From: a virus
Reading direction: 5' to 3' (one strand)
Virus record (IMG/VR): IMGVR_UViG_3300037493_005727
Span: 5,091-69,090 of that record
DNA: 64,000 bases
Positions within the stretch are counted from its first letter, which is position 1, and every line of letters begins with the position of its first letter. The notes under the pieces are model-generated. The model ran no database searches, had not been told where the DNA came from, and saw nothing but the letters and a program-made list of their open reading frames with translations. A program made the position numbers and the translations under genes. This document shows positions 21,706-26,154 of the stretch, in pieces.

Positions 21706-24700
21706 ATGCCTTTCAAAAGCGAAGCCCAGCGTCGGTTGTTCCACATCAAAGCCGACAAAGGGGAGATCTCAAAAGAAACAGTGAGCGAGTGGGAGCACGC
21801 CACGAAGAACAAGAAGAAGCTCCCCATGCATGTGAAGAAGGCGCATGCCGCTGAGAGTCAGCCTATGTCTGACGGTAACGACTACGACCAGGGAGCCGCT
21901 GCGGCGCTGACGCTGTTCAGTAAGGCTGCGAACATGGGCCCTCCGGCGACCGGGACACATATCCCCACGGTGAACCCTGCTCCGGTAATAGGAAGCGCCG
22001 CGACGCAGGCAGTGACCAACATTCACCCGATGGCGCACCGGGCTGCGCACGCCCTGGTGGGCGGAACCACGGGGGCCATCTTGAACGCAGCCATGGCGCC
22101 CTCAGGAGATCGTCTTCGGCAGGGAGGCATCGGATTCGTGTCCGACGCTGTCGGTAGTGCCTTGGGCCCCTGGGGCATGCTGGCGAGTCCTCTCCTCAAC
22201 ATGGCACTACAGCACGTGACTGCGCCCAAGCAGGAAGAGAAGCGCGCGGATCACGCCGATGACCGGTTGAAGGAGCGGATCAAGACAGAATTTCCCCCGG
22301 ACGCCTTGGCTAAGCTCAGGGCGCAGGCGAAGGGGCTTGAGCTCGCTCCCGGCCGGTACTACCTTCCGATGAAAGACAAGGCGGGGAACACCGCCGCTAT
22401 CGCAGCCTTCAAGACAGTGGGCCCCAAGGATCAGTTGGTCCTCGCGACGGTTCTGGCCCCGAAGAAGAACCCGCCTCCAGGGACCTCTCTCTCGCACCTG
22501 ATGAAGCAGCCGATGGGCTCTCAGGTGGCTAAGATCAACGCGTCCCCGAAGCAGTACATCATCCGAAAGGGCGCGGACGGCCGGTACACCTGCACCTGCA
22601 AGAGCTTCAAGTTCCATCACCGCGGCGCGGGAACGAACTGCAAGCACATCAACGAGCACCTCGGGATCACCAAAGAGGCTGCGAACAAGATGGAGCAGTT
22701 CCTCCTCAACCAAGGGACGATCAACGATCCGCAGAAAGCGAGGCTCCGCGAACAGTTCGGACGGACTACCGCGAAACCGGGTGTACGCAGTAAAGCGCTC
22801 GCCAGCCAAGCTCTAGCGCTGGAGCCTGGCGCGATGAAAGATACGTCGCTCAAGGCTCTCCGCGGCCTGATGCAGACGCCGCACTACCCGGACCAGAAGA
22901 GCCTCGAGCGGACTCGTCGGATCAACGAGCTGTCCCTCACGCCAAAGCTGAAGCAGATGCAGGGGAGGAGTCTCGACGCGAACTACTGGAAGGACAAGGA
23001 CCCCACCTTCTTCTACGACTCGAAGAAGCGATTCGCGACGCCGGGGGAGTACCGAGCGAAGTCTCTTCGGCTAGGAGAAGAGACGGCTCCGACGGGACTC
23101 CGCGCTGAGCACGTTCTTCGCGCGGCCACTGCGAGAAAGCCTGTCGAAACAAAGCTGTCCCCTGCCCAGGGGGATCTCGTCATGTACCCTGACGCGCTGA
23201 AGGTACAGCGTGCTCGCTTGAACAAGCAGCGTGGAACGCCGAACCAGACAAAGCCTTGGGACGCTACCGAGATGCGGCAGACGCTCGAGCACGAAGGTGG
23301 CGAGCGGACGATGGTGCTGGAGGGCGTCCGCCGAGGGAAGCCGACGGCGCCATACTCATCACACTGGGGCTCCGACGCAGACGTGGCCGCCAATCTGATC
23401 GCCGCAAAGGACCCCAAGAGCACGTGGACCCCGGACAATCCGGATTCGTTCATCGAACAGAATCACTTCGACCGCTTGTACAAACAGATGGGAGGTACTC
23501 GCGGATCCCCGATCCCGGTGGATAGCCGTCAAAGTCGGGCGCTGAGCCGAAGGATCGGCGACGTCATGGCACAGGCGCCGCTCAACGCGGAAACGAAACA
23601 CGATCTCTCCTCCGCTCTGGAAGGTGGAATCGCCGGTATGCCTCTCCATCCGAAACTAGAGAAGCGCCTGATGCGCGACTACTCGCTCCTCCGCCCTGAT
23701 GAGGCGAAAGCGCCAGAAGTACCCCAGGCAGAGAAAAGCCAGCGCGCCTTGGAGACGCTCAAGAAGCGGACGCGCATGTCTTCGGAGAAGACGTCCGAAG
23801 AAAAGATCGCCATCATGGACCCGCACCACAAAGCCTTGGCGGCCCTAGGAACAGGGGCCGCGCTCGGGGGCCTTGGCGGGTACGCCCTCCAGAAGTACCG
23901 ACAGAGCCGCCAAAAGGAAGAAGGGAAGCCGGAAGAAGAGCAGTCGTCTCCTCTGGCTGGAGCCGCGGGAGGGATGCTCGGAGGAGCGCTCACCGGGGGC
24001 CTGGCGAATTCTCTGTTCGCTACGTCACCGGACGTTCTCCCGAACATCCACCGGCAGGGGCTCTCCCCGGAAGAATACGCGGCGCTTCAACAGAAGCACG
24101 AGCAATACAAGAAAAACCTCAACGAGAAGGGCGTCTGGACGAACACGTACCACAAGCGGATCGCGATCCCTAAGTCCGAACTGTCTGAGTCTCAGATCCG
24201 TGCGCTGGGATACCATCCGGTGGTCGTCGCCGTTCCCGAGGGGGGCCAAGACCGGTTCACCTCGTTCCGCAACACCTCGACGGCGCATCACATCCACTCA
24301 CATCCCGAGCACTGGACGATGCACGAGGATGAACATCCTTCGACAACGATGTTGATGGCCCGAAACGTTCCAGCGGCAGAGCGGGCCAAAGCCCTCGTCA
24401 CGGGCCTGCCGCACATCTTGACCGAGGGTGTTCCCGGCGTTGCCACCTACCTTCGTGGAGGCCTGGGCCGTGCCTTCAACACGTTCATGGGCTACGACGA
24501 CGCATCGGCGATGGTCCCGCGGATCAAACACGAAATGCAGCACGGGACGACGGCCCCGACTGGGTTCGTCCGCCAGCTACAGATGCTCCGCGGGATGAAG
24601 AAGAAGGCGAGCTACGCCCCCATGCCTGCTCTCCCCGAGGAGGAGCCGCAGGCCGTGGAGCAGAGTCCGGGCCCTGAGAAGGAGAAGAAAACGTCGTGGT

Positions 24701-26154
24701 GGCCCTCGCTCGCAGCCGCCGGAGCCATCGGGCTTGGTACCTACGGCCTCATGCGTCGTCCGTCATTCTCGAAGATCCCAGGACTCCGTGCTCTGCAAGA
24801 GGTCGGATCTCGAGAAGGATTTCACCGTACGGTGGACATGACGCAGGCACAGAACAGAAAACTGCGCCCTGGCTTTTTGGGGCGTATCGAAGGCGCTACC
24901 CGACCGGAGATGAACGAGAAAGGCGTGCTCGACTGGAAGAACCGGTTGCTGTTCCACGCCCGAGAGGGTGTCGGCGCCGTTCCCATCGGATCCGAGGACG
25001 GAAAGCAGTGGGTCGCCCTGCCGGGGCACGGAAAAACCAACGCGGGCAAGCCGCTCAATGTGAAGGGGCTGGTGTACGGACGGCACGAGCCTTCGACGGA
25101 GGGTCCGGAGAATCAGCCCATGGCTCACCTGCTCCGCGGGGGATCCGATGTTGAGGGGTCCATGGCCACACAAAAGGCGCTGACGGACATGGCACAACGA
25201 CACGGGAAAGGTTTCGAAGCGGATCTGCTGATGAAGCACGCGCCGGAGTCAGTGCCCGAGTCGCTCACCGACATGGGTCGCTACCACCCAGGTGTACAAC
25301 TGGCGCCACACCACGCGAAGCAGAGGATCCAAGCGGTCAACAAACTTCAGCAGCAGCTGGCCGAACACATGGGGGCCGACAACTTCGTCCTCAAGCCGCA
25401 GAAGACCGTCCAGTCCCAGGGGCAGTTCCCCTGGGGGCGTGACCAAGATGGGCTGGGTGGAACCAACTGGGGAGAAGAGATCGCCAAGTTCGACAAGCGG
25501 ATGCGTACAGACCGCCGCTTCCGGCAAAACGTCGAGAAGAACTTCGGGCAAGACTACCTCACCAAGGAGATGCGCCAGGAGGGGCTCCTCCCTGGCTACA
25601 CGCTGCACAGCTTCTTGAAGGACCCCAAAACAGTCTTCGCCCAGCGCGGGATCCCGGAGCCTATCGGGGAATGGCGTGCTCACGTCATGGGCGGTGCGGC
25701 GCCTCCGAGCATGATGATGCCTCGAGAAGGCGGCCTCACTCACGGGCAGCAGAAGTTGATGGGGATGACGTTCCCCAAGGAGGACATGAGCAAGTTCATC
25801 CAGGAGACGATGGCCAAGCTCCCTCCGGAGTACCGGGACGGAACCTACGGGATGGACGTCATGCCGTACAAGAAGCCAGACGGGACCCTCGGGTTCAAGA
25901 TCGTTGAAATGAACCCTACCGAGAGGTTCACCCCAGGGCTCACCACAGGCGGCGGCTCAGGCATGCTGGCGGCGCACTACCTCCCCACCATGGGCCTGCA
26001 CCAGGCCAGGCAGCTCACCGGACGCTGGGACCCGCACGTCGCAGGTGCTGCGGCTCTCGGAACGGCTGGCCTCGCCGGACTTGCGGGAAGAGCGCTTACG
26101 CCCTCTACTAAGCCGGACGACGAAGACGAAGACGTTCCACACCCGGCGGGTTGA
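21706..26154 (+). CDS. very large multidomain protein: SWIM zinc finger (N-terminal third) and C-terminal ATP-grasp-like domain
   Basis: 1482 aa. SWIM CxC..CxH: YTCTCKSFKFHHRGAGTNCKHINEHL. C-terminal NFVLKPQKTVQSQGQ ... EWRAHVMGG ... YGMDVMPYKKPDGTLGFKIVEMNPT matches the ATP-grasp K-loop / E / ...VLE-N signature. Several antisense ORFs rejected. Confidence 0.6.
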   Translation: MPFKSEAQRRLFHIKADKGEISKETVSEWEHATKNKKKLPMHVKKAHAAESQPMSDGNDYDQGAAAALTLFSKAANMGPPATGTHIPTVNPAPVIGSAATQAVTNIHPMAHRAAHALVGGTTGAILNAAMAPSGDRLRQGGIGFVSDAVGSALGPWGMLASPLLNMALQHVTAPKQEEKRADHADDRLKERIKTEFPPDALAKLRAQAKGLELAPGRYYLPMKDKAGNTAAIAAFKTVGPKDQLVLATVLAPKKNPPPGTSLSHLMKQPMGSQVAKINASPKQYIIRKGADGRYTCTCKSFKFHHRGAGTNCKHINEHLGITKEAANKMEQFLLNQGTINDPQKARLREQFGRTTAKPGVRSKALASQALALEPGAMKDTSLKALRGLMQTPHYPDQKSLERTRRINELSLTPKLKQMQGRSLDANYWKDKDPTFFYDSKKRFATPGEYRAKSLRLGEETAPTGLRAEHVLRAATARKPVETKLSPAQGDLVMYPDALKVQRARLNKQRGTPNQTKPWDATEMRQTLEHEGGERTMVLEGVRRGKPTAPYSSHWGSDADVAANLIAAKDPKSTWTPDNPDSFIEQNHFDRLYKQMGGTRGSPIPVDSRQSRALSRRIGDVMAQAPLNAETKHDLSSALEGGIAGMPLHPKLEKRLMRDYSLLRPDEAKAPEVPQAEKSQRALETLKKRTRMSSEKTSEEKIAIMDPHHKALAALGTGAALGGLGGYALQKYRQSRQKEEGKPEEEQSSPLAGAAGGMLGGALTGGLANSLFATSPDVLPNIHRQGLSPEEYAALQQKHEQYKKNLNEKGVWTNTYHKRIAIPKSELSESQIRALGYHPVVVAVPEGGQDRFTSFRNTSTAHHIHSHPEHWTMHEDEHPSTTMLMARNVPAAERAKALVTGLPHILTEGVPGVATYLRGGLGRAFNTFMGYDDASAMVPRIKHEMQHGTTAPTGFVRQLQMLRGMKKKASYAPMPALPEEEPQAVEQSPGPEKEKKTSWWPSLAAAGAIGLGTYGLMRRPSFSKIPGLRALQEVGSREGFHRTVDMTQAQNRKLRPGFLGRIEGATRPEMNEKGVLDWKNRLLFHAREGVGAVPIGSEDGKQWVALPGHGKTNAGKPLNVKGLVYGRHEPSTEGPENQPMAHLLRGGSDVEGSMATQKALTDMAQRHGKGFEADLLMKHAPESVPESLTDMGRYHPGVQLAPHHAKQRIQAVNKLQQQLAEHMGADNFVLKPQKTVQSQGQFPWGRDQDGLGGTNWGEEIAKFDKRMRTDRRFRQNVEKNFGQDYLTKEMRQEGLLPGYTLHSFLKDPKTVFAQRGIPEPIGEWRAHVMGGAAPPSMMMPREGGLTHGQQKLMGMTFPKEDMSKFIQETMAKLPPEYRDGTYGMDVMPYKKPDGTLGFKIVEMNPTERFTPGLTTGGGSGMLAAHYLPTMGLHQARQLTGRWDPHVAGAAALGTAGLAGLAGRALTPSTKPDDEDEDVPHPAG

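Follow-up and report, generated by a model that had tools for sequence, protein, structure and literature searches.

What could a phage do with a single polypeptide that couples a zinc finger to a ligase-like domain? This question is raised by a stretch of viral DNA of 64,000 nucleotides (nt) (IMG/VR record IMGVR_UViG_3300037493_005727, positions 5,091 to 69,090; this whole stretch is called the window below), on which an open reading frame (ORF) with an ATG start codon at 21706..26154 on the plus strand encodes 1482 amino acids (aa). Our answer, held with slightly better than even confidence, is that this target protein of a large uncultured phage is a multi-effector product assembled from cassettes, in the manner of 'polyvalent proteins'. 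The 1482-aa protein had been predicted from the ORF list and its translation, and it is a real gene product, since metagenome proteins match it at 82-85% identity across nearly its whole length (P0002 and P0003, aa 54-1482, from other metagenomes). In addition, a database search returned the exact sequence (P0001, 100% identity and coverage) from a phage sequence of 190,250 bp. The window, with a guanine plus cytosine content of 60%, is part of a large tailed phage, as it encodes rIIA/rIIB, helicases, a DNA ligase, tRNAs, a transfer-messenger RNA (tmRNA) and a tail/baseplate module.

Among 50,697 deposited phages searched by tblastn/megablast, the 20-kb region, the target protein, its N-terminal motif and divergent ligases remained unmatched apart from one weak match, to a jumbo-phage gene resembling RimK. 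No relatives came out of scans of the IMG/VR and GTDB genomes with single proteins, a method that reaches near-identical peptides only. Similarly, whole-protein and per-segment Pfam and PHROG scans found no significant match for the target, for the three small ORFs upstream of it or for ORF 26158 downstream. The rIIB/rIIA pair (2351-5625, minus strand; PHROG 6e-67 and 4.4e-95) finds its closest cultured matches in roseophages of ~146-150 kb at 38-39% identity (rIIA at most 39%), which weakly hints at an alphaproteobacterial host; no cultured phage is a close relative.

The C-terminal module (aa 1020-1442) is an ATP-grasp enzyme, in line with the original prediction, judged by its fold, the conservation of its catalytic residues and family-level Pfam matches. 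An AlphaFold2 (AF2) model with a predicted local distance difference test score (pLDDT) of 90.4 contains the three-part fold of pre-ATP-grasp, RAGNYA and protein-kinase/PIPK-like domains. The segments on which the prediction rested, FVLKPQ, EWRAHVMGG and YGMDV...FKIVEMNPT, are all found in the target and hold K1230, E1322/R1324 and D1384/E1401/N1403. Among 94 aligned family sequences that share roughly 20-40% identity, K1230, R1324, D1384, E1401, N1403, S1418 and G1439 never vary (seven columns), and at least 90% of the sequences retain K1168, E1171, Q1313, E1322, H1326, G1330 and R1340; the target itself has every one of these residues. They can be read against the published ATP-grasp template, which comprises a strand-2 Lys, a strand-4 Asp, an E-x-N motif and the Arg of the amide-forming ligase clade (PMC4431377). 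K1230 (F-V-L-K-P, 94/94) lies in a predicted strand at 208-212 of the model and corresponds to the Lys near the end of RAGNYA strand 2; D1384 in strand 4 and the Mg-ATP ligands E1401 and N1403 (E-x-N, strand 5) are likewise present in 94/94 and coincide, when aligned, with the Mg-binding motif of two ATP-grasp ligases of solved structure (5ig8 and 7drm); and R1324 (E-W-R-A-H, 94/94) is the Arg of the amide-forming clade. On the evidence of these residues, the module appears catalytically complete, including the amide-ligase Arg. Neither loss of the ATP-grasp residues in homologues nor a different fold was found, and both results favor ATP-grasp.

The family behind this module is large. A profile built from eight C-terminal modules, searched against 1.84 billion proteins through representatives of 50%-identity clusters, retrieved 441 clusters at E <= 1e-3 and 98 at E <= 1e-30. 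Most of the 158 collected family proteins are stand-alone ligases of 351-600 aa (107 proteins), and 39 are longer and multi-domain. Pfam matches within the alignment were to PF14243 (R2K_3; 52/94) and PF18299 (R2K_2; 29/94), and a profile search of PDB sequences returned sub-significant ATP-grasp motif matches only.

These names point to the R2K clade of ATP-grasp enzymes, which comprises CDC123, R2K.2 (DUF4343) and R2K.3 and is named after a second Lys/Arg in the loop following the strand-2 Lys, where it replaces a lost linker Lys (Burroughs, Zhang & Aravind 2015, PMC4431377); the Pfam names R2K_2 and R2K_3 are not established as equal to R2K.2 and R2K.3 of that work. The PF14243 matches mostly score 14-26 bits against a cutoff of 26.3 bits and cover the kinase-like half. 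A few members exceed it (P0140 with 38 bits, P0052 with 42 bits), most relatives stay below the gathering score and the target protein itself gives no match. When the family was compared by hhalign with a genuine phage DUF4343 protein (RsoM2USA ORF161, named in PMC8504454), only the C-terminal 79 columns aligned, at a probability of 79% and E 1.6e-5. The family loop reads K-P-x-x-G-x-(Q/A)-S-x-G, and in the 94 sequences none of the positions +2 to +6 is conserved as K/R (at +2, R occurs 23, T 21 and V 13 times); aligned with it, the phage DUF4343 sequence FFTRPCADNKSYSG has its second Lys at the site where the family has Q/A. In addition, K1168 (91 K and 3 R of 94), in the motif DKxxEAxLLxKxAPGxxP 62 residues upstream of K1230, looks from sequence and predicted secondary structure like the canonical linker Lys that the R2K clade is said to lack. 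The E-x-G-D of R2K.3 is absent as well: the family has E-x-N in 94/94 aligned sequences, and 149/158 collected proteins match E.N[PATS]. Because of the missing second-Lys loop, the canonical-like Lys upstream and E-x-N in place of E-x-G-D, we file the ligases, as far as their motifs tell, as a distinct and uncurated ATP-grasp family outside the R2K clade, with R2K/DUF4343 as nearest described relatives.

The zinc finger predicted near residue 290 is SWIM-type. The motif YTCTCKSFKFHHRGAGTNCKH contains C296, C298, C312 and H314 in a CxCx13CxH arrangement; its three cysteines are the sole ones in 1482 residues, and the pattern was recreated in 0/20,000 shuffles of the target protein. The C/C/C/H ligands, which are predicted to bind zinc, are invariant in 14/14 homologous modules, and Pfam SWIM (PF04434) is the top match for all 14, with a best E of 3.7e-5 (the target's own copy reaches 15.6 bits against the 19.6-bit cutoff). 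In the AF2 model, CxC lies at the end of a beta-strand and CxH at the start of a helix. A profile search of PDB sequences gave no significant match for the module. The combination of SWIM and ATP-grasp had also been called unusual, and this holds: the SWIM pattern occurs in 12/175 collected proteins, 11 of which also have the ligase, and no published description of the pairing was found in the literature searched. The pairing looks like a by-product of cassette fusion; relatives may lack the modules, carry them as separate genes or have them in another order.

Module maps of 30 homologues show that the target is a chain of independently folding modules that are shuffled between relatives. The ligase alone is the majority architecture. 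Besides that, we observed pre-SWIM, SWIM and ligase (P0015, P0044), pre-SWIM and ligase (P0021, P0029), His-rich module and ligase (P0012, P0013), pre-SWIM, His-rich module and ligase (P0035), N-terminal motif, His-rich module and pre-SWIM (P0160, P0161), and short proteins of 245-305 aa with the N-terminal motif, Gly/Ala region and pre-SWIM, with or without SWIM (P0162-P0175). Further ligase fusions involve InPase (P0034 with 2.8e-34, P0126; InPase adjoins the ligase in locus L006), Amidoligase_2 (P0140), KTSC (P0034), a second ligase in tandem (P0052), and LigD_N, the LigD 3'-phosphoesterase, together with DNA ligase (P0073). The syntenic 188 kb relative L001 carries only a 246-aa version consisting of the N-terminal motif, Gly/Ala region and pre-SWIM domain, and no ligase lies within 10 kb on either side of it.

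The cassettes share a helix motif, [YF]xxGxxx[AS][LAI]xx[YF][GS], which occurs within the first 50 aa of 35/158 ligase-family proteins and in 1/158 for a control window. It starts ORFs 20229, 26158 and 12328, lies internally at aa 62-76 of the target (aa 59-72 for DYDQGAAAALTLFS) and ends ORF 21139. In P0035 and P0160 it stands between modules, and in loci L003 and L007 unrelated enzyme-like polyproteins begin with it. With a profile of the motif, the sites in the window rank at the top of 750 six-frame segments, with weak individual E values of 0.015-0.8. The motif-bearing set may extend beyond the 20-27 kb array. Motif-bearing segments elsewhere in the window are 12328-13266 (plus), 13865-14206 (plus) and 13469-13900 (minus); the N-terminal MLNELAYAQGVDDGMAKFAIS of the 312-aa ORF 12328-13266 is an example. 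In L003, a neighboring 633-aa polyprotein (6624-8525, plus strand) begins with the motif, has no Pfam match and shows, by eye, a nucleotidyltransferase-like GS...DxD string and an HExxH string.

Fusions and gene order link these modules to an SNF2 helicase. In L005, the orthologous SNF2 polypeptide unites the helix motif, the pre-SWIM domain (50% identity), the His-rich module (44%) and the helicase core (58%) without Gly/Ala linkers, and the ligase is the next gene. In P0067, an SNF2 core (49% identical) is fused directly to the ligase, and SNF2 lies just upstream of the ligase in five loci, including L003, L005, L011 and the P0009 locus. The evolution of the target modules is coupled to that of the SNF2 helicase. 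Other recurrent neighbors of the ligase are Gly/Ala proteins and a C39 peptidase. A convergent C39 gene follows the ligase in 5/8 informative loci, including those of P0009 and P0020, L005 and L011, and is absent next to the ligase in L006, L007 and L012; the L005 peptidase has 44% identity (E 1e-40), and the P0020 locus shares the C39 gene among otherwise unrelated neighbors.

The layout of the target was derived from BLAST module maps, hydropathy and an AF2 run on aa 176-1019, which gave well-folded islands at a mean pLDDT of 61; a Foldseek comparison of this N-terminal and middle model with the PDB reached a best E of 0.9. The N-terminal motif (aa 1-50) immediately precedes the ligase in P0078 and P0100 and has no Pfam match. 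The pre-SWIM domain (pLDDT 83-94) is tentatively assigned a RelE/ParE-like fold. In P0009 and P0010, the place of the linker is taken by a module like that of ORF 26158. In the His-rich module, 35 columns are invariant, with 7 His and 3 Glu (among the invariant residues are E850, H867, H869, H871, H878, D880, H882, H908 and E912), and aa 785-875 are modeled with pLDDT 68-93. It has no Pfam, PDB or fold match and is, from its residues, a putative metal-dependent enzyme. A JAB/MPN (JAMM) metallopeptidase reading of its HIHSHPEHWTMHED was rejected, as neither the E...HxHx7Sx2D motif nor a JAB fold was found. A helix like that at aa 998-1016 also precedes stand-alone ligases, the C-terminal helix of the target is predicted with pLDDT 69-89, and a PHPxG terminus occurs in 20/158 family proteins. 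The Gly/Ala helices are marginally hydrophobic: Kyte-Doolittle values are 1.0-1.3, and Hessa sums on a crude scale run from +3.6 to +8 kcal/mol.

Table 1 Features of the target protein and its neighborhood in the window.
Feature	Position	Strand	Support or remark
SNF2-family helicase	16930..18372	+	Pfam and PHROG matches
HAD/PNKP-type phosphatase, first gene of array	19068..19559	+	Pfam HAD_PNKP 2e-8; PHROG polynucleotide kinase family
Three small Gly/Ala-rich ORFs with helix motif	20229-20666, 20666-21142, 21139-21699	+	Counterparts in L001, L007
Target gene, modular protein	21706..26154	+	ORF list, translation, homologues P0002/P0003
N-terminal basic conserved motif, aa 1-50, MPFKSEAQRRLFH...LPMHVKK	21706..21855	+	68-91% identity, P0008-10, P0160-174
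Gly/Ala-rich region, aa 54-175, helix motif DYDQGAAAALTLFS and two marginally hydrophobic helices	21865..22230	+	Hydropathy, motif profile
Pre-SWIM domain, aa 176-270, alpha-alpha-beta-beta-beta, tentatively RelE/ParE-like fold	22231..22515	+	Weak
SWIM-type zinc finger, aa 271-330	22516..22695; ligands nt 22591-22647	+	C296, C298, C312, H314
Linker, aa 345-575, probably disordered or helical	22738..23430	+	AF2 pLDDT <50
Small helical domain, aa 575-675	23428..23730	+	AF2 pLDDT 71-94
Second Gly/Ala region, aa 701-778, two marginally hydrophobic helices	23806..24039	+	Hydropathy
His-rich alpha/beta module, aa 779-965, PE-x-GQ...H-x-HSHP-x2-WTMH-x-D-x-H...PH-x3-EG	24040..24600	+	
Hydrophobic Gly/Ala helix before ligase, aa 998-1016, WWPSLAAAGAIGLGTYGLM	24697..24753	+	Hydropathy
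ATP-grasp ligase module, aa 1020-1442: pre-ATP-grasp, RAGNYA, kinase-like domains	24763..26031	+	
C-terminal Gly/Ala helix, aa 1443-1465, and acidic tail, aa 1466-1482, ending PHPAG	26032..26151	+	
Companion module, 383 aa, N-terminal helix motif, C-terminal Gly/Ala helix	26158..27309	+	Invariant Q57, H109, C286
Hairpin, 13-bp stem, GC-rich, between convergent genes	27291..27321	.	Likely bidirectional terminator
C39-family cysteine peptidase, 177 aa, stand-alone, convergent on array	27324..27857	-	Pfam Peptidase_C39 2.1e-18

The target lies in a tight co-directional array (19068-27309) with gaps of <=37 nt and no internal plus-strand terminator beyond 19750. The array sits just downstream of the SNF2 helicase, near a DNA ligase and ~17 kb from the tail/baseplate module, and ends at a strong hairpin. 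The HAD/PNKP phosphatase at its head has no kinase domain and is syntenic in L001, L005 and L011. It is followed by a 204-aa protein (19578-20192, plus strand) with a proline-rich PEPTPEPAPEAPEP tail that is partly encoded by a 33-nt tandem duplication (20043-20108); its central aa 74-133 are conserved in L001. The claim of Gly/Ala-rich flanks stood only upstream, where 20229..21699 consists of three ORFs rather than one, with Gly plus Ala fractions of 0.40, 0.29 and 0.33 compared with 0.13-0.22 for most genes of the window; the downstream ORF (26158-27309) has a fraction of 0.22 and only its hydrophobic helices are Gly/Ala-rich. The last of the three upstream proteins (21139-21699) opens with a CxCx8CxxC zinc-knuckle-like MMIKECTCKNGKKNPKCPAC and ends in the helix motif MYYEFGKRAAIADFDL, 7 nt before the target ATG. 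The module of ORF 26158 recurs in P0024, P0010, P0009, P0059 and P0135 as an in-frame fusion that precedes the ligase; it has no Pfam match and no significant PDB sequence match, and from its invariant Q57, H109 and C286 it is possibly a Cys/His hydrolase. ORFs 21139, 21706 and 26158 share one reading frame, separated by TGA plus two codons and TGA plus one codon. Stop-codon read-through joining them was rejected, as L001 does not preserve this frame relation and homologues have their terminus at the same PHPxG; the shared frame is probably due to chance. The C39 peptidase has intact catalytic residues as read from the sequence (Gln/Cys 'IQKDGYSCG', His 'HFGVVHG', Asp 'ADP'). The T4-type late promoter TATAAATA has zero occurrences, a sigma-70 scan stayed at chance level and a direct-repeat search found no shared promoter-like element, so that these signals give no hint of expression timing.

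Further features of the window were recorded. A minus-strand gene at 30513-33272 encodes a 919-aa homologue of the eukaryotic major vault protein (MVP; Pfam MVP_shoulder 5.1e-23, Vault_3 4.9e-9, Vault 1.9e-7), which is syntenic in related 168-188 kb phages and has ~40% identity to genes of uncultured 462-735 kb phages; the plus-strand ORF 30468-32615 overlapping it is spurious. Viral MVPs were reported in a 2023 bioRxiv preprint (10.1101/2023.11.10.566534). ARAGORN identified a tmRNA (34622-34964, minus), whose tag peptide is ANDNVDFPQYALRAA. It also placed seven tRNA genes at 9087-9314 and 33319-34516, both minus, of which six were assigned (Gly, Val, Lys, Ala, Ser and Met). A 21-nt tandem array of ~5-7 units, GACRGGCTCYACCGGAGGRRC, lies at 37855-37997 within a minus-strand ORF region. 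The tail/baseplate module is a block of very large plus-strand ORFs (44442-62234) with almost no family matches apart from a VanY peptidoglycan peptidase (52977-53948, 7e-21) and Baseplate_J (54419-56491, 2.4e-5). In addition, ORF 52286-52987 is sigma-factor-like (PHROG 2.7e-6).

Several explanations compete for what the protein does during infection. One possible explanation, which we regard as doubtful, is that the target and its Gly/Ala neighbors travel inside the capsid and are delivered along with the DNA, the enzymes acting at entry; the N-terminal helix motif would then be a capsid-targeting signal, and the marginal glycine-zipper helices would insert into the host envelope. The shared motif, which heads neighbors and many stand-alone ligases, indeed recalls the capsid-targeting sequences of T4 internal proteins, and the helices are too weakly hydrophobic for constitutive transmembrane (TM) segments, which suits capsid-soluble proteins. 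Yet the same modules are fused to SNF2 in L005 without any Gly/Ala helices, and in about ten loci examined, the gene was neither fused nor adjacent to any portal, MuF, capsid or tail gene. In favor of packaging, InPase-containing polyvalent proteins are predicted to be packaged and the SNF2-like DarB of phage P1 is a head protein (PMC5512222), but the tight array with its HAD phosphatase, the SNF2 gene upstream, the nearby DNA ligase and the distance to the tail/baseplate genes speak for another setting. The virion-borne enzyme proposed in the original prediction found no support: its basis was Gly/Ala-richness only, and the gene lies in an array with an HAD/PNKP phosphatase, just downstream of SNF2, where no portal, MuF or capsid link was found. 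The gene position favors intracellular expression with repair and replication genes over packaging and injection.

This position could also suggest an enzyme directed at nucleic acids, a reading we consider unlikely. The substrate would be DNA, RNA or nucleotide-linked, with the ATP-grasp module either joining a modified base to an amino acid or polyamine or acting as a kinase, while the SNF2 translocase gives access and the HAD phosphatase and DNA ligase belong to the same repair or modification pathway. We know of no classical ATP-grasp ligase acting on DNA, the nearest sequence relatives (R2K/DUF4343) are predicted protein-peptide ligases, and many stand-alone members of the family have no nucleic-acid enzyme in their vicinity. 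What speaks for it are the recurrent SNF2 links (P0067, L003, L005, L011), LigD 3'-phosphoesterase with DNA ligase in P0073, a kinase-less HAD/PNKP phosphatase in the window, L001, L005 and L011, the nearby DNA ligase, and the fact that SWIM domains classically accompany SNF2 ATPases (PMC5512222). Rather improbable is a membrane-anchored complex, in which the Gly/Ala helices are TM anchors and the array 20229-27309 builds an inner-membrane assembly, for example for superinfection exclusion or replication anchoring. Counting the helices as TM segments would put ligase and zinc finger on opposite sides, one of them periplasmic; moreover, their hydrophobicity is marginal and they are dispensable in the L005 fusion. 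This has to be set against helices with basic borders (KKSW...MRRP) flanking nearly every module and stand-alone ligases, a Pfam glycine-zipper domain in P0011, and the remark that the R2K.3 family is 'often misannotated as membrane protein' (PMC4431377). Finally, a pathway resembling that of ribosomally synthesized and post-translationally modified peptides, with a graspetide-type macrocyclase, C39 removing the leader and the small Gly/Ala proteins as precursors, is very unlikely: these proteins have 145-186 aa and no Thr/Ser/Lys-Asp/Glu core repeats, the helix motif has no Gly-Gly site, the ligase bears the same 'leader' motif and there is no transporter gene.

Under the preferred reading of a cassette-built multi-effector protein, the ligase would bind Mg-ATP, activate a carboxylate as acyl-phosphate and join it to an amine. 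Most likely, it would attach a short peptide or amino acids to a protein, in the way of RimK, TTL/TTLL and LysX; amide bond formation, most likely on a protein, is suggested by the R1324 ligase signature, the nearest relatives and this analogy. During infection, the ligase would work in concert with the SNF2 helicase and the remaining modules to alter a host or phage target that is probably DNA-associated, with a role in takeover or counter-defense. The long protein and its neighbors might be processed into functional units, for which the adjacent C39 peptidase is a plausible candidate. Several points weigh against this reading. The C39 gene is convergent and not co-transcribed with the array, C39-like folds can also be cell-wall hydrolases, and no double-glycine site is evident in the recurring helix motif. 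The ligase is accessory, since it is dispensable in the close relative L001, and its protein-modifying activity and protein substrate are predictions from sequence and analogy. Polyvalent proteins are defined by MPTase, MuF and a methylase-helicase dyad (Iyer et al. 2017, PMC5512222), none of which was found here by Pfam or PHROG, and the list of their domains in that work includes neither ATP-grasp amidoligases nor SWIM. A more far-reaching version, which we think unlikely as a whole, is that the ligase, C39, His-rich and 26158-type Cys/His modules form a phage protein-tagging system in which the ATP-grasp enzyme adds amino-acid or peptide tags to a DNA-associated protein of host or phage that is reached by SNF2, with the peptidases maturing the polyprotein and trimming or reversing the tags. 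If true, this would be a previously unknown, ribosome-independent protein-modification pathway in a large group of uncultured phages.

Phages with an ATP-grasp ligase are not new in kind, since R2K-type ligases were predicted in 2015 as protein modifiers in phage-host conflicts (PMC4431377; also PMC7824862) and found sporadically in jumbo phages in 2021 (PMC7824862). New are the large, essentially unannotated ligase family without the R2K lysine signature, the cassette architecture with Gly/Ala helices, shared helix motif and PHPxG tail, the coupling of the ligase to SNF2, C39 and InPase, and its SWIM, RelE-like and His-rich companions; in the literature searched, no published work combining these was found. 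Phage enzymes that covalently modify host proteins, such as ADP-ribosyltransferases and acetyltransferases, have been a rich source of biology and tools. To the best of our knowledge, phage ATP-grasp peptide ligases have been predicted for a decade and never characterized. The locus defines a metagenome-only ligase family of at least 441 clusters with testable partners (SNF2, C39, InPase), and the target ligase has its catalytic residues intact and is suited to expression. The combination of cassettes, Gly/Ala helices and helix motif represents an unusual route to multi-effector proteins, in which the motif could be a targeting or processing signal. The target is a good lead for a new phage host-modifying enzyme.

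Compared with known systems, the ligase module has just 10-17% identity to RimK, TTL/TTLL and LysX/ArgX, with no PDB sequence-level match, and differs from them in its N-terminal domain and flanking elements. With the R2K clade it shares the ATP-grasp fold, the E-x-R, D and E-x-N motifs followed by S-G, and phage-borne, sporadic spread, and one family member is fused to a second amidoligase, as in the linked ligases described for R2K (PMC4431377). In contrast to that clade, the family modules have a length of ~420 aa, their pre-ATP-grasp domain is conserved, Gly/Ala helices flank them and their tail is acidic and bears PHPxG. The zinc finger resembles the SNF2-associated SWIM fingers (PF04434) in its CxCxnCxH pattern, in beta-strands followed by a helix and in the SNF2 helicase in its neighborhood, whereas it lies outside the helicase polypeptide and behind a tentatively RelE/ParE-like domain, and in L005 it is the pre-SWIM domain rather than the finger that is fused to SNF2. 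The polyvalent proteins (PMC5512222), from which InPase was defined and which are predicted to be packaged, differ as follows: the target stands among repair and replication genes with no adjoining head genes, its candidate peptidase is encoded separately, as a C39 cysteine peptidase, and not embedded as a metallopeptidase, and Gly/Ala helices together with a repeated helix motif connect its modules. LPD domains, MuF/portal linkage or a late-gene context were not found for the target. Because the MPTase, MuF and late-gene features are missing, and ATP-grasp amidoligases and SWIM are not listed for the class, we treat the target as a variant and not as a member. Common to both are several unrelated effector domains in one polypeptide, each also occurring solo or shuffled, InPase as a partner domain, the association with SNF2, an associated peptidase that could release the units, and an accessory character that varies between close relatives.

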